From: Thermotogota bacterium
Lineage (GTDB): Bacteria > Bipolaricaulota > Bipolaricaulia > UBA7950 > UBA9294
NCBI GenBank assembly: GCA_039679545.1
Contig: JBDKUT010000120.1
Span: 1 to 35,674, forward strand
Direction of reading: 5' to 3'
Length of the DNA stretch: 35,674 bases
The notes beneath the pieces were generated by a model that worked only from the letters and a program-made list of their open reading frames with translations, ran no database searches and was not told where the DNA came from. A program made the translations under genes and the position numbers. Of this stretch, positions 14,893-35,157 are shown one piece after another. How positions within the stretch are numbered: position 1 is the stretch's first letter; every line of letters begins with the position of its first letter.

Positions 14893-14932
14893 AAAAACAG
14901 AGCGACTGCGGGAAATCCCGCAGTCGCCTCTC
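14893..14932 (-). terminator. Intrinsic terminator (attenuator) in the ABC operon leader
   Basis: Minus strand GCGACTGCGGGA-TT-TCCCGCAGTCGC-TCTGTTTTT, lying between the promoter and the first gene. Confidence 0.88.
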
Positions 14933-14966
14933 GGTTCCTCCGCAGTCTACGCGCTACCCTGAGCGG

Positions 14967-15062
14967 CTAGCGCGCCGCGGAGAAACCGTGCTCAAACCAA
15001 TACCAGTAGAAGGAGAAGCTGCCGGTTCGATCGCTCTGGGCACGCTGTCTCGCTTCGTTCAT
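14967..15062 (-). CDS. Aromatic-amino-acid leader peptide (31 aa)
   Basis: MNEARQRAQSDRTGSFSFYWYWFEHGFSAAR*; run FYWYWF; starts 9 nt after the -10 box; followed by a terminator. Confidence 0.85.
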   Translation of the reverse strand: MNEARQRAQSDRTGSFSFYWYWFEHGFSAAR

Positions 15063-15071
15063 GGCTGGGCC

Positions 15072-15100
15072 ACTATAGAGTCCAACGGATTCAGTGTCAA
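15072..15100 (-). promoter_or_regulatory. sigma70 promoter of the leader peptide/ABC operon
   Basis: Minus strand TTGACA(15100-15095)-17 nt-TATAGT(15077-15072). Confidence 0.85.
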
Positions 15101-15119: not shown

Positions 15120-15148
15120 TTGACAAGATCGAGGGTTCCCTTTATGAT
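15120..15148 (+). promoter_or_regulatory. sigma70 promoter of the hrcA operon
   Basis: TTGACA(15120-15125)-17 nt-TATGAT(15143-15148). Confidence 0.88.
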
Positions 15149-15174
15149 TAGCAGACACGTATATGGAGTGCTAA
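15148..15174 (+). promoter_or_regulatory. CIRCE element (HrcA operator)
   Basis: TTAGCAGAC-N9-GAGTGCTAA versus consensus TTAGCACTC-N9-GAGTGCTAA, directly upstream of hrcA. Confidence 0.93.
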
Positions 15175-15183
15175 CTGGAGACG

Positions 15184-16248
15184 GTGAGGACCTTGACCCT
15201 GCCCGAACGACAGAGACTGATTCTGAAGGAGATCGTAGACCGGTACATCCGGCTCTACGAGCCGGTTTCGTCGCGGATGATCCTCGAGGAGTACGGGCTA
15301 AAGGTAAGCTCGGCGACCGTCCGCAACGACATGTATGACCTGGAGAAGCTGGGATTCATCGCCAAGCCGTACTCGTCCTCGGGGAGGATTCCCACGCAGA
15401 GGGGATTCCGATTCTTCGTCGAGTGGTTACTGGATCTTTCGGAGCTTCAGAAGACACAACGGCTCGAGATCGTTGAGACGTACGAGGCGCGGGTGCTGGA
15501 CGTCTCGGAGGCGATCCGGCAGACGGCGTTTGTGCTCGCCAACATGACCAGGTACGCCGCGTTCGTGGTCCCGCCCCGCCTTGAGGACGCCCGCCTCGAA
15601 CGCGTCCTCCTCGTTCGCATGAGCGATCGGACGGCGTTCCTCGTCGTCGTGTCGGACATCGGCGTCGTCGAGCAGGGCCTGATCCCGCTCGAGACCGACG
15701 CGACGGAGGAAGAAGTCGAGCGGATGATGCAGACCGTCAACCGCACGCTGCGCGGCGCGCGCCTCGAGGAGGTGCGTGCGCTGGCGGCGGAAGAAGGGCC
15801 AGAGGGATGGTACGAGCGCCCCGAGCGGCAGGCGCTCGCCGTGGTCGGCAAGCTGCTCGACCGCCGGATGGGACAGCGCGTCGTCGTGGAAGGGATCCTG
15901 CATCTCATTGAGCCGCTCCAGCGGCTCGCTCCCGAGCATGCTATGGAGCGGTTCGCGGCGCTCGGCCGGGCCGTCCAGGACGAAAAGGCGTTCCCTGAAG
16001 CCCTCGAGCGTGCCCGGGAGGGACGCACGGGAATCGTCGTCAACGTGGGCGACTTCCCGCTTGCGGGCGCAGAGGAGTTCAGCGTGATCACCCTCCCGTA
16101 TCGGCCGCACGGCGGTCTGCTCGGGGTGATTGCCCCGGTCTGCATGGACTACGGACGAGCGATGTCGGCGCTGACGTACGTCGCGAACCGGCTGGAGGCG
16201 CTCCTCGTCTCAGCGCGCGGCCGCGCGCTGAAAGAGGAGGCAAGATGA
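15184..16248 (+). CDS. hrcA: Heat-inducible transcription repressor HrcA
   Basis: ERQRLILKEIV, EPVSS, SSATVRNDM, SSGRIPT, GVIAPVCMDY; CIRCE upstream; precedes grpE-dnaK-dnaJ. Confidence 0.95.
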   Translation: MRTLTLPERQRLILKEIVDRYIRLYEPVSSRMILEEYGLKVSSATVRNDMYDLEKLGFIAKPYSSSGRIPTQRGFRFFVEWLLDLSELQKTQRLEIVETYEARVLDVSEAIRQTAFVLANMTRYAAFVVPPRLEDARLERVLLVRMSDRTAFLVVVSDIGVVEQGLIPLETDATEEEVERMMQTVNRTLRGARLEEVRALAAEEGPEGWYERPERQALAVVGKLLDRRMGQRVVVEGILHLIEPLQRLAPEHAMERFAALGRAVQDEKAFPEALERAREGRTGIVVNVGDFPLAGAEEFSVITLPYRPHGGLLGVIAPVCMDYGRAMSALTYVANRLEALLVSARGRALKEEAR

Positions 16249-16832
16249 TCCCGGACAACGAGGACGCGGTGCGAACACCGCGCGAGGAGTTGTCGGAGAA
16301 CGCGGCCCCCGCTTCCGAAAGCCCGGGTCCCGGCGCCGCGGAGGAAACCGCCGCCGCGGGGCTTCTCGCCGAGAAGAAGGCGGAGCTTGCCGCGACGATC
16401 GACCGCCTGAAGCGGCTGCAGGCCGAGTTCGAGAACTATCGGAAGCGGAGCGCGCGGGACATCGCCGCGCTCCGCGAGCGGATTGCGGACGATGAGATCT
16501 GCAGCTTTCTTCCGCTCTACGACGGACTGGAGCGAGCATTCTCCACCTACAGAGAGACGAAAGACGCCGAGGGTCTCGTCGTCGGCGTGGAGAAGATCTT
16601 TGGGCAGTTTCACCAGATCCTGGAGCAGAAGGGACTCAAGCGCATCTGCACGATCGGCGAGCGCTTCGATCCCGAGCTCCACGAAGCGCTCGTCTCCCTA
16701 CCGAGTGAAGAAGAGAAGAACACCGTTATCGAAGAACTCTCTCCCGGGTATGCCAGGGCCGGCCGGACGCTCTTGCCGAGCAAGGTTGCGGTGAGCCAGG
16801 GCCCGGGCGCGGAAGAGAAGGAGGAGTCATGA
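16245..16832 (+). CDS. grpE: Nucleotide exchange factor GrpE
   Basis: [23 protein letters not shown]; gene context. Confidence 0.96.
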
Positions 16833-18682
16833 GAGAGAAGATCATTGGCATCGATTTGGGAACCACCAACTCCTGCGTCGCCGTGCTGGAAGGAGGGGCG
16901 CCGGAGATCATCACGAACTCGGAGGGAGAGCGCATCACGCCGTCGGTCGTCGCGTTCACGGAGGCCGGCGAACGCCTCGTCGGCCGCCTCGCGCGCCGCC
17001 AGGCCATCATGAACCCGTTGCACACGGTCTCATCGATCAAGCGAGAGATGGGGACCGATCACCGGATCAAGATCTCGACGGACGGGAAGACGACCGAGTA
17101 CTCGCCGGAGCAGATCTCGGCGATGATCCTCCAGAAGATGAAGCAGGACGCCGAGGCTCACCTCGGCGGGAAGGTCACCAAGGCGGTCATCACGGTGCCC
17201 GCCTACTTCAACGACTCGCAGCGCCAGGCGACGAAGGACGCCGGGACCATCGCCGGGCTCGAAGTCATGCGGATCATCAACGAGCCGACGGCGGCGGCGC
17301 TGGCCTACGGACTCGACAAGCAGCACGAGCAGACGATCCTCGTCTACGACCTCGGCGGCGGCACGTTCGACGTGTCGATCCTCGAGATCGGCGACGGAGT
17401 CTTCGACGTCCGCGCCACCGACGGCGACACCCGCCTCGGCGGCGACGACTTCGACCAGCGGATCCTCGAGTGGCTGAAGGATGAGTTCCGCAAGGACACG
17501 GGGATCGACCTCTCCAAGGACCCGAGCGCCATGCAGCGCCTTCGCGACGCCGCCGAGGCGGCCAAGATGGAGCTGTCGAGCCGGATGGAGACGACAATCA
17601 ACCTCCCGTACCTCACGGCCGACGCGGCGGGACCGAAGCACCTGGAGAAGAAGCTGTCCCGCGCCAAGTTTGAGTCGATGATCGACGACTACCTCACCCG
17701 GACGATCTCGATCGTCGACGCGACGCTGCGCGCCGCCAACAAGGAGTCGAAGGACATCGACCAGGTCGTGCTCGTCGGCGGGTCCACGCGCATCCCGAAG
17801 GTCCAGGAGCTCGTGGCGAAGCGGATTCCCGGCAAGATCAACCGGGAGATCAACCCCGACGAGGTCGTCGCGGCCGGCGCCGCCATCCAGGGGGGCATCC
17901 TGGCCGGCGAGGTCGACGAGATTGTCCTTCTCGACGTCACGCCGCTGACCTTGTCCATCGAGACGCTGGGCGGGGTCGCCACGCCGCTCATCGAGCGGAA
18001 CACGACGGTTCCGACGGAGAAGACGAAGACGTTCACGACGGCGGAGGACAACCAGCCCGCGGTCGAGATCCACGTCGTCCAGGGCGAGCGCAAGATGGCG
18101 TCCGACAACAAGTCGCTTGGCAAGTTCCAGCTCACCGGACTGCCGCCGGCTCCGCGCGGAATTCCGCAGATCGACGTGACGTTCAACATCGACGCCGACG
18201 GGATCCTTCACGTCACCGCGAAGGACAAGGCGACCGAGAAGACGGCGTCGATCGCCATCACCGACTCGTCGCGCCTCGACCAAACGGAAATCGACCGGAT
18301 GAGGAAGGCGGCCGAGGAGCACGCCGAGGAGGACCGGAAGAAGGCCGACCTGGCGACGCTCCGCAACCAGGCGGATCAGCTCACGTACTCGGTCGAGAAG
18401 GCGCTCGCCGACCTCGGACAAAAGGTGGACGGCACGAAGCGCGCCGAGATCGAGGAGCGGATCCGAACGCTTCGCCAGAAGCTCAGCCAGGAGGCGAGCC
18501 ACGACGACGTACGCCGCGCCATGGACGAGCTGTCGAAGAGCGCCCAGGACGTGATCGCGAAGGCCTACCAGCAAGGCCAGCAGGGAACTCCGTCGGGCGC
18601 CGGAACGTCGGGCGGCGGACCGTCGGCCTCCTCCGACAAGGACGACGGCGACTACATCGACGCGGAGTACGACAAGGGATAA
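16829..18682 (+). CDS. dnaK: Chaperone DnaK
   Basis: [49 protein letters not shown]. Confidence 0.99.
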
Positions 18683-18709
18683 GCTCCCGCCTCAGCAAGG
18701 GAGGGCGGC

Positions 18710-19822
18710 GTGGCCAAGAAGGACTACTACGAGGTCCTTGGGGTAGCCAAGGACGCGACCGAGGCGGAGATCAAGAAGGCCTATCGGCAGAAGGCCAAGG
18801 AGCTCCACCCCGACCGCAACCCCAACGATCGGAAGCGCGCCGAGGAGGACTTCAAACGGGTCGCGGAGGCCTACGAAGTCCTCGCCGACTCGCAGAAGCG
18901 CGCGCAGTACGATCGCTACGGCCACGCCGGTCCGGACCAAGGATTCACGTTCGGCGACACCGACTTCCGCCGCGCCCGCGAGGCGTACCAGGAATTCGGG
19001 TTCGGCGGATTCGACAGCCTGTTCGACCTGTTCTTCCGTCAGGGCGGCTCCCGCGGCGCCGGGCCGCGTATGCGAGCTCAGCAAGGCGAGTCGATCGAGT
19101 ACCGGCTGCGCATCACCCTTGAGGACGCCGCGCACGGGACGAAGATGTCGCTGACGGTGCCGCGTCTTGTGCCATGCGGCGTCTGCAGCGGAACCGGGCG
19201 GGAGCCCGGATCGTCGGTGCACACGTGCTCCACCTGCAAGGGGCGAGGACAGATCGAGCATCGGCAGCAGAGCTTCCTCGGGAGCTTCGTCAACGTCAGC
19301 ACGTGCCCGGAGTGCGGCGGGACCGGGGAGATCGTCGAACGTCCCTGCAATCGCTGTCACGGGAACGGGCGCGTCAAGGAGAAGAGCAAGGTGTCGATCA
19401 CGGTCCCCGCTGGCGTCGACACCGGGTCTCGACTGCGGCTGCGAGGCCAGGGGAACGCGGGCGTCGAAGGAGGGCCGAGCGGCGACCTCTACATCGTCAT
19501 CGAGATCATCCCGCACCCCGAGTTCGCACGGAACGGGCTCGACATCCACTCCCGCGTCGCGGCGACCTATCCGCAAGCGGCGCTCGGCGCGAAGGTGAGC
19601 GTTGACACCCTCTGGGGCAAGGAGACGCTGACGATTCCGGCTGGGACGCAGCCGGGGACCGAGTTCCACCTGCGCGGCAAGGGGATTCCAAGCCTGCACC
19701 CCTTAGAAGGGAAGGGCGACCACGTCGCCCACGTTACGATCGACGTCCCGACCAAGCTCTCTGCGCGTCAGAAGAAGGCGCTGGAGGAGTTCGTCAAGAC
19801 GTTCGACTCAGTCGCCGGATAG
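18710..19822 (+). CDS. dnaJ: Chaperone DnaJ
   Basis: J-domain HPD, G/F region, four CxxCxGxG motifs. Confidence 0.98.
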
Positions 19823-24241: not shown

Positions 24242-25297
24242 CTAGCGGGTTGAAACGACGACGAGGTAGTTACCATGCTGCTTCTGCCACTCGATGAAGC
24301 CGCCAAGAAGGCTCTGCGCACGCCTTCCGCCTTTCTGTAGGCTCTCAGCCACGGGGTCACTCTCCAATCCATCGTCGCTGTAGATGACCACCGGAGTATC
24401 CCGCGGCAGCGTTCGGACATATTCAGCGACGCTGGCTTCGGGAAGGTTCACGGCACCGGCCAGATGCCCGGCGGAGAAGGTGGACGCGGAACGGATGTCG
24501 ATCAGGATGTAGTCGGATCTGAGCCGTGTCACGTCGTAGTACCGCAGCATCCCTGATGAGGAGTCGGTGCGAGCGCCAGAGATGTCGAGAAACGCACCCC
24601 ACGACGCGTCCTCTCCCATCGCCATGCGCGTCGAGCCATAGCTCTTCTGCCACATATCGAGGCCGCCTTGCAGAGCGTAAACAGCGGCCAGTCCCTCAGC
24701 GCGGAACTCCTCCAAGACAGCCGTCACCGTGGAGCCGGCCTGATCGTAGATGATCGTCAGAACACCCGGCGGCAGGGCAGCAGCGTACGCCGTTGCCTCA
24801 GCCGTCGGAGCGTTCATGGCGCCGATAAGGTGTCCTGCGGCATACGCTGACGGGTCGCGAACGTCAATGAGAAGGTATGCATCGTAGAAGAGGTCGCCCA
24901 CCGGCTTTTGGTACGGCTGCCGCTCAACAACCTTGCCCGCCAGGTTGAGTGTAAGTCTGGGACGAGCCGGATCGTTCGATTCCACCGTGACGTAGCGCAC
25001 GACCCTGTCAGAGAATCCATTGGTGTCAAGCATGGCCTGCAGACCGACGCTCTGGCCCGGCTGAAGCCGATCCGTCTCGAGCTTGGTGGTCGTGCAGTGA
25101 CAGCCCACGGTGACGTCCGTGATAACGAGCTCTTGGTCGCCGACGTTCGATAATACGAACGTGTGGACCACCGCGATTCCTTCGATCGTATCAGGGTAGT
25201 TGTACGTCTCTTGGTCCACGGCGATTTGGGGAGCGGCCACGGCCGCGACGCCAAACCCCACAAGCGATATCGCCAGAAAAGCGAGAATCCGTCTCAT
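24242..25297 (-). CDS. Secreted DUF1573 (Ig-like) protein with two rhodanese-like domains
   Basis: ATG at 25297 with SD AAGGAG; signal peptide; F.LSNVGDQELVI...GCHCT...LQPGQ; two IDxR...GHLxGAxN repeats. Confidence 0.85.
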   Translation of the reverse strand: MRRILAFLAISLVGFGVAAVAAPQIAVDQETYNYPDTIEGIAVVHTFVLSNVGDQELVITDVTVGCHCTTTKLETDRLQPGQSVGLQAMLDTNGFSDRVVRYVTVESNDPARPRLTLNLAGKVVERQPYQKPVGDLFYDAYLLIDVRDPSAYAAGHLIGAMNAPTAEATAYAAALPPGVLTIIYDQAGSTVTAVLEEFRAEGLAAVYALQGGLDMWQKSYGSTRMAMGEDASWGAFLDISGARTDSSSGMLRYYDVTRLRSDYILIDIRSASTFSAGHLAGAVNLPEASVAEYVRTLPRDTPVVIYSDDGLESDPVAESLQKGGRRAQSLLGGFIEWQKQHGNYLVVVSTR

Positions 25298-29117: not shown

Positions 29118-30170
29118 ATGAGAGAACTCATCAGAACAACCAGAGGCCGTCTGATAATCGCGCAGCGGATCCTGCTCCGCAGTGCGGCGGCCGTCGCGTG
29201 TCTCGTACCGCTGGGAGGAGGAATCGGCGGGCGCGGCACGGTATCTACGGATGTCGTCATTCACGAAGTGTGTTGGACGGGCACGCAGGCGAGCTCCGCC
29301 GACGAATGGATTGAGCTCAAAAACAACCTCAGCCGCGCTGTGCTGCTCTCCGGCTGGCGCCTCGTTGCGGAAGACGGAGTCCCGGCCGTAACGCTCTCCG
29401 GAACCCTCGCTGCGCAGGGGTTCGTTCTGCTCGAGCGAACCGACGATTCGACCGTCGTCGACGTACCTGCGGATGTTCTTTTCACGGGGACGCTCGAGAA
29501 CTCGGGAGAAACGTTGTACCTCTTCGACTCGAGCGGGCGACTCGTCGACTCGGTCGAGTGCGGCGGGGGATGGTTCGCCGGCGAGTCCGCGCCGTCGTAC
29601 GCCACGATGGAACGAGTGAACTCAAGACGGTCCGGCGTCGCTGCGAATTGGCGCACGCACGACGGGTCGATGCAGAACGGGCACGACGCCGCTGGCCACG
29701 CACTTCGGGGCACGCCGAGGGCCGCGAACTCCGTGACGAAGCCTCCGCACGTTGATTTCGTCACGTCGCCCGCGAGCCCGACAGTCTGGGACAACGTGGA
29801 ATTCCGGGATCTCTCCACCGACAGCGACGGCGAGGTGAACTCGTGGCAGTGGGATTTCGGAGACGGGGTCGTGTGCAACACCCAGACCGCCGTTCACCGT
29901 TTTCCCGCCCCGGGAACGTACTGCGTTGCCCTGACGGTTGAAGACAACGACGGTCTTATCGCACGTTGCGAGCAGTGGGTCGCCGCGTCGACCGGACCCG
30001 GCGACCTAAACGACGACGGGAAGATCGATCTGATTGACGTCCATCTTTGCCTAGAGCTCACGCAGGAGCTCGGCGGCACGTCGGCATTGGAGGATGCCGA
30101 CGTTGACCTCGACGGAAATGTCGATCTCGACGACGCGAAGAAGCTCGCGGAGTTCGTCCTCGGTCTGTAG
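29118..30170 (+). CDS. Secreted lamin-tail-domain + PKD + dockerin-like protein
   Basis: VVIHEV...DEWIELKN...LSGWRL (LTD); STDSDGEVNSWQWDFGDG...H.F..PGTY.V.LTV.D (PKD); GDLNDDGKID...ADVDLDGNVD (dockerin/EF-hand pair). Confidence 0.85.
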   Translation: MRELIRTTRGRLIIAQRILLRSAAAVACLVPLGGGIGGRGTVSTDVVIHEVCWTGTQASSADEWIELKNNLSRAVLLSGWRLVAEDGVPAVTLSGTLAAQGFVLLERTDDSTVVDVPADVLFTGTLENSGETLYLFDSSGRLVDSVECGGGWFAGESAPSYATMERVNSRRSGVAANWRTHDGSMQNGHDAAGHALRGTPRAANSVTKPPHVDFVTSPASPTVWDNVEFRDLSTDSDGEVNSWQWDFGDGVVCNTQTAVHRFPAPGTYCVALTVEDNDGLIARCEQWVAASTGPGDLNDDGKIDLIDVHLCLELTQELGGTSALEDADVDLDGNVDLDDAKKLAEFVLGL

Positions 30171-31034: not shown

Positions 31035-31110
31035 TGGTGGGTGGTACAGGACTCGAACCTGTGGCCTCATGCACGTCAAGCATGCGCTCTCCCAACTGAG
31101 CTAACCACCC
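31035..31110 (-). tRNA. tRNA-Val(GAC)
   Basis: GGGTGGTTAGCTCAGTTGGGAGAGCG-CATGC-TTGACGT-GCATG-AGGCCACAGGTTCGAGTCCTGTACCACCCACCA; full cloverleaf, CCA encoded. Confidence 0.97.
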
Positions 31111-31123
31111 CTGGGATTGGGTG

Positions 31124-31194
31124 AGGCGGCGAGCGGACTCGAACCGCTGATCAGGGATTTGCAGTCCCTTGCCTTACCGCTTGGCTACGCCGCC
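31124..31194 (-). tRNA. tRNA-Cys(GCA)
   Basis: GGCGGCGTAGCCAAGCGGTAAGGCA-AGGGA-CTGCAAA-TCCCT-GATCAGCGGTTCGAGTCCGCTCGCCGCCT; U73 discriminator; CCA not encoded. Confidence 0.96.

Positions 31195-33580: not shown

Positions 33581-35157
<1,577 letters not shown>

Follow-up and report, generated by a model that had tools for sequence, protein, structure and literature searches.

What controls the ABC importer encoded on the minus strand of the 35,674-nt stretch of DNA analyzed here (the window), and how might a ribosome on the short aromatic open reading frame (ORF) in front of it act on transcription? The element between promoter and importer is very probably a ribosome-sensed transcription attenuator as such. 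It works like the trpL/pheL attenuator but fails the antiterminator test of that family.

The leader and its importer

A promoter, a leader ORF, a long hairpin and a terminator had been claimed for this region in an earlier note made from the sequence alone, and all four were found where it had placed them, on the minus strand. The sigma-70-type promoter (15072..15100; −35 box at 15100-15095, −10 box at 15077-15072) reads TTGACA-17-TATAGT and matches 11 of 12 consensus bases. It is one of two promoter-grade sites found between 8000 and 20000, versus 0.6 expected, and its boxes and spacing are kept in relatives. Nine nucleotides past the −10 box, with no ribosome-binding site between them, lies the ATG of a 31-codon ORF (14967..15062), which appears to be effectively leaderless, its start being predicted from the promoter. 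The putative sensing codons are the aromatic run F16-S-F-Y-W-Y-W-F23 (14994..15017), one of 12 places over the six frames of the genome with at least six aromatic codons in eight. A weak 5′ hairpin, H0 (15009..15056), is predicted to pair early codons with codons just upstream of the run (−18.0 kcal/mol). The long hairpin A (14932..14988) starts 5 nt past the run, has the stop codon within its 5′ arm and pairs 14988-14975 with 14945-14932 and 14974-14968 with 14956-14950. In the intrinsic terminator hairpin with its U tract (14893..14928; core 14925-14904), 14928-14917 pairs with 14912-14901. The stem of what the earlier note had called a GC-rich terminator with a U tract is there, but the tract is interrupted (6 U in 8), as in most strong hairpin-U sites of the genome. 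The whole leader folds with a z score of −4.92, and none of 200 shuffles was equally stable; terminator-like sites alone are at chance in the region (6 found versus 6.4 expected). An Rfam scan of the window gave no leader family at gathering score and detected only two tRNAs, whose genes lie at 31038-31194 (minus strand). One of four sequencing runs, a run marked “probably DNA,” yielded a 175-nt contig over 14891-15024; apart from this, the four runs gave only short, unrelated pieces.

By profile match, the first importer gene encodes an ABC substrate-binding protein of PF04392 (13702..14706; the VC_1101/CD0873/SP1069 family); a permease (PF02653; 12777..13676) and an ATPase (PF00005; 11998..12786) complete the importer, all on the minus strand. 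Against the NCBIfam TrpX model NF041285, the binding protein scored 213.3 of 390 bits, below the curated cut-off. Its closest named relatives are from Candidatus Bipolaricaulota, and its best solved relatives are 3LKV (E 3e-61), 6HNI (8e-46) and 3LFT (1e-36). According to the available part of PMC6816091, these solved PF04392 members hold Phe, Tyr and Trp, and selectivity depends on two positions: a Tyr/Phe-type state excludes Trp, and SP1069 has Gln at the Trp-admitting position. By alignment, the protein in the window has Asp248 at the Tyr-hydroxyl position and Tyr264, rather than a small residue, at the Trp-admitting position; Asp and Tyr recur there in 49 of 50 rows from the phylum (some genomes being in twice). 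The earlier note had held that the codon run predicts the substrates of the transporter. An aromatic substrate is indeed likely, as the family binds aromatic amino acids, but transport of Trp is doubtful because the pocket residues are of the Tyr/Phe type.

The organism itself appears unable to make aromatic amino acids. No AroC (chorismate synthase), TrpA or prephenate dehydratase was found in its genome (93.6% complete), nor was a TrpP or Mtr/TyrP-type permease, and the binding protein of the importer is present in one copy. Chorismate synthase was found in none of five congeners and in 74 of 184 phylum genomes. Control of the importer by a T-box or by TRAP was rejected, since neither a T-box nor a TRAP gene (PF02081) was found in this 93.6%-complete genome. 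Over the phylum, T-box RF00230 exceeded the cut-off in 0 of 151 genomes; two T-box-like matches lay just below it (G046:C36:19806-20081 and G041:C5:3048-3349), in families in which no leader was seen. Rho is encoded in the genome and is not needed to explain a U-tailed hairpin.

Opposite to the importer runs hrcA-grpE-dnaK-dnaJ (15184-19822, plus strand), in which we take dnaK and dnaJ to be correctly identified from their sequence. A divergent promoter precedes this operon within 15120-15174 (plus strand), overlapped by an inverted repeat (15148-15174) that is presumably CIRCE-like, with two mismatches in one arm. Since the −35 boxes of the two promoters are only 20 nt apart, HrcA might touch the importer promoter too. 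The same hrcA neighborhood was seen at loci L002, L003, L008, L011 and L012.

Conservation before importers and other genes

Of 184 genomes of the phylum Bipolaricaulota, 86 were found to encode the binding protein. Ninety-one loci (29 + 62) were examined, of which 10 with less than 250 nt upstream were dropped. A short ORF with an aromatic run, a hairpin and a U-tailed terminator precedes 79 of the remaining 81 importers (78 genomes); a check for such conservation before orthologous transporters had been advised in the earlier note. The two loci without a leader have distant binding proteins (31% and 24% identity). By family, the 79 leaders comprise 35 of f1, 32 of f6 and 12 of f7.

Because the run was picked by its aromatic content (by hand at L018, L037 and L053, with run ends adjusted at a few more loci), three less circular checks were added. 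When the start was set by the −35 box alone, the run lay in its frame in 34 of 35 f1 leaders (one has no box) and in 30 of 32 f6 leaders (two have no start), which bears out the claim of an in-frame leader ORF with a mixed aromatic run. For f7 the count is 0 of 12; starts lie further down in this family, and the ORF is not leaderless. The start codon of f1 leaders lies 8 to 10 nt past the −10 box, judged from sequence with a predicted transcript 5′ end. One fixed rule for such an ORF picked out 24 of 24 phylum loci versus 1 of 53 homologue loci in other phyla; the counts exclude three loci with scant upstream DNA, the 24 genomes are among those above, and six of them were deposited as “Thermotogae.”

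Across the 79 loci, aromatic codons account for 421 of 632 positions in the run window versus 27 of 1240 elsewhere in the leaders. The run window contains 141 Phe UUY codons versus a single Leu UUR codon (UUA/UUG), and Cys codons occupy 22 of the 632 positions. Both synonymous codons are used, and F, Y and W interchange. In 68 of 79 leaders, the last eight run codons include Phe, Tyr and Trp; the others have W+Y (8), F+W (2) or Y (1), and a Trp codon is kept in 78 of 79. Outside the run, neither the sequence nor the length of the leader peptide is conserved. The Phe at F27 of the 31-aa leader peptide, which the earlier note had listed beside the run, is present but is kept in only 16 of 35 f1 members.

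The structures were compared in a folding set of 127 leaders, made up of 78 importer leaders (one dropped) and 49 paralogues; some tests have an n of 126. Hairpin A has a z score below −1.64 in 126 of 127 leaders, and all nine of its nine basal pairs show changes on both sides in the 35 f1 sequences. In the same 35 sequences, 97.8% of terminator cells are paired, a value reached by 0 of 500 shuffles and compared with about 45% in slid controls; four of nine terminator pairs change on both sides, and the three basal pairs are invariant. The f1 covariation counts come from kin that are not independent. For H0, 47 of 126 leaders fall below a z score of −1.64, among them 17 of 35 in f1 and 2 of 32 in f6.

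Two sequence words were observed in addition. Close behind the U tract in the window is a ribosome-binding-site-like word (14890-14884, minus strand), which is also found in most f1 loci; the binding-protein start in f1 lies 75 to 250 nt beyond that word, downstream of the U tract. A ribosome-binding-site-like word inside the ORF, 6 to 12 codons before the run, was seen in 44 of 44 f6 and f7 leaders (e.g., L057, L058 and L021). It has a constant frame and no start codon at the usual distance, is absent from the 35 f1 leaders and is possibly a ribosome pause signal.

What the earlier note missed, besides the effectively leaderless state of the ORF, is that the leader is a member of a phylum-wide family, with four leaders in its own genome. 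Of 48 strong hairpin-U sites in this genome, 3 carry the terminator core, and upstream of each lie a promoter, a near-leaderless ORF and a hairpin. These three are the window leader; L094 (G000:C87 ~29751-29910, plus strand), with a Thr/Ile/Met run before a homoserine dehydrogenase gene that is followed by ORFs we take to be aspartokinase-like and asd-like; and L095 (G000:C5 ~24630-24800, minus strand), with a Leu/Met/Val/Ile run before a PF13458 binding protein. The fourth leader (G000:C90 ~34500-34700, minus strand) has a near-match of the core and four Thr codons. A pattern search for the core gave 79 matches in 51 of 184 genomes. Sixty core-match stretches away from the importer were retrieved, of which 47 were used (9 had no leader, 1 was cut and 3 had an ORF without a clear run). 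Family f6 has a fixed terminator core of its own, found 31 times in 30 genomes, and the core differs between f1, f6 and f7.

The genes next downstream of the leaders were compared with Pfam (53 genes, 50 with a match), and the amino acids of the run change with the downstream pathway. Aromatic runs precede prephenate dehydratase (pheA; 8 loci), chorismate mutase (2), DAHP synthase (aroF; 1) and anthranilate synthase (trpE; 2), and an f6 copy with an aromatic run precedes one TrpB-like gene. Thr/Met/Ile runs precede homoserine dehydrogenase, aspartokinase-type kinases and threonine synthase, the last assigned from a Pfam match below cut-off on a partial protein. Met runs precede Cys/Met PLP enzymes. 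Three Met codons are present in leaders before PF13458 binding proteins at L134, L136, L137, L140, L151, L152 and L154, pointing to candidate methionine importers within a family usually labelled branched-chain. Four leaders (L158-L161) lie within a 21-kb stretch of G178:C37; the genes they precede encode two binding proteins, a member of the glutamine synthetase family and a class III aminotransferase. Leader-like ORFs without a clear codon run were seen before an archaeal-type PEP carboxylase (PF14010; L147) and before genes without a Pfam match (L146 and L148).

By the logic of attenuation, biosynthetic operons open when their product is scarce. Since the same layout, with cognate runs, stands before biosynthetic operons, starvation and the resulting stall most likely give read-through. 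Two relatives fit this starvation logic less well: at L163 and L166, a Thr run precedes an NAD-dependent epimerase/dehydrogenase gene (PF01370) that is possibly catabolic, perhaps, as a guess, a threonine dehydrogenase.

Search for an antiterminator

Three features of a classical attenuator were found, namely, an in-frame cognate ORF, a terminator before the first gene and a run matching the pathway. The fourth, a stall-formed antiterminator overlapping the terminator, was not found among the 127 leaders. Folding of full-length leaders at equilibrium gave hairpin A plus the terminator in every ribosome position. In transcripts cut before the terminator 3′ arm (69 loci; 10 dropped with no detected core), the 5′ arm was least paired at mid-run stalls. 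The best duplex between the terminator 5′ arm and upstream RNA was weaker on average than in shuffles in all seven classes of the 127 leaders. When the 3′ arm of hairpin A was fully freed, the pairing amounted to −2.4 versus −3.0 kcal/mol for shuffles, with a z score below −1.64 in 2 of 127 leaders. With a limited ribosome footprint, gains were flat over positions (−2.3 to −2.8), and in 49 of 126 leaders a mid-run ribosome gave a larger gain than one at the stop.

Consensus folding yielded no covarying alternative helix. A four-pair helix from f6 consensus folding was discarded, with no pair changed on both sides. The hairpin-to-terminator (2:3) pairing, a zipper extension and the ORF-to-terminator pairing proposed in the earlier note were no better than shuffles. 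Its mutually exclusive folds were likewise not borne out, as terminator-arm pairing did not exceed shuffles and was independent of ribosome position; the 8-mer word it had seen in both the hairpin and the terminator 5′ arm is present, but only 4 of 78 orthologous leaders share it.

Six E. coli leaders (trpL, pheL, thrL, leuL, ilvL and hisL) served as the positive control. In a wider-reach test, five of the six gained −8.3 to −14.3 with the ribosome stalled and about 0 to −1.3 with it at the stop, while hisL, a known multi-step switch, was missed. With a fixed 12-nt mask, thrL, pheL and ilvL were clear, leuL and trpL were weak, and hisL was again missed. Applied to the 127 leaders, the wider-reach test gave a median of −4.0 and was stall specific in 9; the gain reached at least 0.4 of the terminator energy in 25, and the window leader gave −5.6 at the stall versus −6.0 at the stop. 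Because the shuffle tests were null while five of six E. coli leaders were positive, we conclude that a conserved trpL-type antiterminator is not there in these leaders.

Classical attenuation might still act through an antiterminator that is weak, lineage specific or multi-step. A stalled ribosome would fray hairpin A at its foot, and bases released there, or a cascade like that of hisL, would briefly occupy the terminator 5′ arm and delay its folding. The spacing between run and A is compatible with fraying by a ribosome on the last codons, and under the 12-nt mask, terminator-arm pairing in f1 goes from 0.09 (mid-run) to 0.42 (last codon); the 25 leaders with a ratio of at least 0.4 and the failure of the test on hisL also speak for such a switch. 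We nevertheless consider it unlikely, given that the pairings are no better than shuffles, scattered and equally strong with the ribosome at the stop, that no alternative helix covaries and that the terminator arm is freest at mid-run stalls.

The invariance of the basal terminator pairs in f1 would fit a factor (an antiterminator protein, NusA/NusG or a pausing polymerase) that reads the terminator core under the control of the stalled ribosome or of intact hairpin A. So would the fixed core of f6 and the occurrence of the window's core at 3 of 48 hairpin-U sites, all three with leaders for different amino acids, with a near-match at the fourth leader. This is improbable, however: the core differs among f1, f6 and f7, 9 of the 60 fetched core matches have no leader, no candidate factor was found (TRAP was not found in the genome itself), and common descent explains a shared core.

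An inverted logic, in which a ribosome at the stop melts A and the freed 3′ arm opposes the terminator, turning the importer on when aromatics are plentiful, is very improbable. Truncated transcripts do show more pairing of the terminator arm with the ribosome at the stop (0.33-0.53) than mid-run (0.08-0.23), but this pairing is not above shuffles, and induction by product makes no sense for the cognate biosynthetic operons with the same layout. It is hardly credible that the ORF encodes a functional small peptide or that the run is kept as RNA, with the terminator merely ending a short transcript; the region folds strongly and its U-rich run tolerates Cys codons, but the peptide is unconserved outside the run, both synonymous codons are used, F, Y and W interchange, and the amino acids of the run follow the downstream pathway.

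Geometry, proposed blocking and known systems

The reading that we favor, as a realistic possibility, is control by physical blocking of the terminator with no antiterminator fold. It is reached by exclusion, because equilibrium folding forms the terminator in every ribosome state. The run lies 2 to 7 nt from hairpin A in 104 of 127 leaders, and in 120 of 127, A ends 3 to 8 nt short of the terminator core. Added together, these distances come to 7 to 13 nt in 99 of 127 (standard deviation [SD], 3.2), and the length of hairpin A varies from 28 to 62 nt (SD, 9.2). In 127 of 127 leaders, the stop codon starts at most 4 nt upstream and at most 22 nt downstream of the first base of A, a position from which a terminating ribosome would melt A. 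A ribosome covers about 10 nt 3′ of its A site.

Under the blocking proposal, the ribosome would load on the start codon at the transcript 5′ end. With amino acids plentiful, it would reach the stop codon, located at the base of A or within its 5′ arm, melt A and leave, after which the terminator would fold with slack RNA upstream and transcription would end. When charged Phe-, Tyr- or Trp-tRNA is short, the ribosome would stall on the run and A would stay folded. Because A loops out 28 to 62 nt, the stalled ribosome would then be near the terminator, with about 10 single-stranded bases between it and the terminator 5′ arm. These would be too few to complete the terminator stem in the polymerase exit channel, and the importer would be transcribed. 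The mRNA tunnel entry lies 11 to 12 nt from the P-site codon, as given in the available part of PMC8861025.

A precedent is E. coli pyrL, where, in the part of PMC5021804 available, a ribosome near polymerase prevents the terminator without an antiterminator. In pyrL, however, it is the advancing ribosome that blocks, covering the terminator sequence itself, and an upstream stall raises termination; here, blocking by a stalled ribosome 39 to 70 nt upstream would depend on hairpin A to bring it close enough. Other points also count against blocking. The antiterminator test misses hisL, and its narrower version also failed on trpL and detected leuL weakly; in 25 of 127 leaders, moreover, the gain amounts to 0.4 or more of the terminator energy. 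The spacing could be kept by shared ancestry, and f7 has looser spacing (sum, 14.7; SD, 3.8) and an ORF that is not leaderless (0 of 12). Hairpins can dock in the ribosomal A site, although longer stems did not dock in the available parts of PMC8861025 and PMC7282821. The 11-nt spacing for docking fits the last aromatic codon in the window; hairpin A is long, and docking was rejected as the main mechanism and kept only as a possible amplifier. A TnaC-like arrest peptide was rejected because the run-to-stop distance varies from one to eight codons and the C-terminal residues are not conserved.

All three aromatic amino acids are probably sensed, but equal sensing of Phe, Tyr and Trp is doubtful by analogy with aroR-aroF of C. 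glutamicum. There, as here, a mixed aromatic leader (Phe-Tyr-Phe) precedes an aromatic pathway gene, but it has no Trp codon and serves biosynthesis only. It responds to Phe, and its Tyr codons conferred no Tyr sensing (Neshat et al. 2014, as reported in the available part of PMC11802643). The claim in the earlier note that a shortage of any aromatic aminoacyl-tRNA is read therefore holds as regards an attenuator with a mixed run and is qualified as regards equal sensing.

Like trpL, pheL, thrL, leuL, ilvL and hisL, the element places a short ORF with cognate codons, a hairpin and then a terminator ahead of the first gene, and like thrL and ilvL it has codons of several amino acids. Unlike the E. 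coli leaders, five of six of which gave a strong stall-specific antiterminator in the wider-reach test, it gave none there, and its ORF is near-leaderless, carries all three aromatics and targets an importer. The mycobacterial polycysteine “ribulon” (10.1101/834739, in the portion available) also uses leaderless short ORFs at several loci for stall-based sensing, but its output is release of a ribosome-binding site in response to one amino acid, whereas here a terminator responds to several amino-acid groups. Sequestration of a ribosome-binding site does not describe this leader, in which a U-tailed terminator lies about 190 nt ahead of the gene start.

The pLS20 zipper-type attenuator (PMC13401043) shares the layout of weak hairpin, long imperfect hairpin and terminator, although H0 is significant in only 47 of 126 leaders here. 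In the parts of that paper available, its upstream hairpin is complementary to the terminator and no leader peptide appears; in our leaders, upstream pairing was −2.4 versus −3.4 kcal/mol for shuffles and was stronger in 30 of 126. The S. suis trpXYZ operon, under a Trp T-box in the available text of PMC9382623, encodes the same transporter family and is likewise controlled by aminoacyl-tRNA, but a T-box reads one amino acid and the window leader has none. Acholeplasma uORFC-13-1 before aroF is a predicted upstream ORF with a Phe codon or codons beside a terminator, as here, but in another phylum, with Phe only and aroF only; the likeness is one of description, not of sequence (PMC8632094, available part). 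Actinobacterial leaders with terminators and unclear switches, in which codon changes were sometimes without effect (PMC1262725, part available), advise caution for the window leader.

Mixed-codon leaders (thrL, ilvL and aroR) and leaderless sensing ORFs (mycobacteria) are thus already known. A description of the element in Bipolaricaulota was not found in the literature searched, chiefly the main text of non-subscription papers. We tentatively propose that Bipolaricaulota run amino-acid supply via a leaderless attenuator family without an antiterminator, in which a hairpin spacer docks the stalled ribosome against polymerase and so blocks the terminator. If blocking is the mechanism, only geometry matters, and the sensing codons would therefore be freely swappable, giving a modular amino-acid sensor with an input set by codons alone. 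One cassette would serve the aromatic, aspartate-family, methionine and branched-chain pathways as well as importers, in a phylum almost without T-boxes, and one leader would read all three aromatic tRNAs for the importer. Amino-acid attenuation would then be possible without the textbook alternative fold, and such switches would be overlooked elsewhere because prediction tools look for that fold. The element would further offer a short and portable means of testing how intrinsic termination is controlled by a ribosome close to RNA polymerase, and its codon runs would assign substrates to many unnamed importers of an uncultured phylum.
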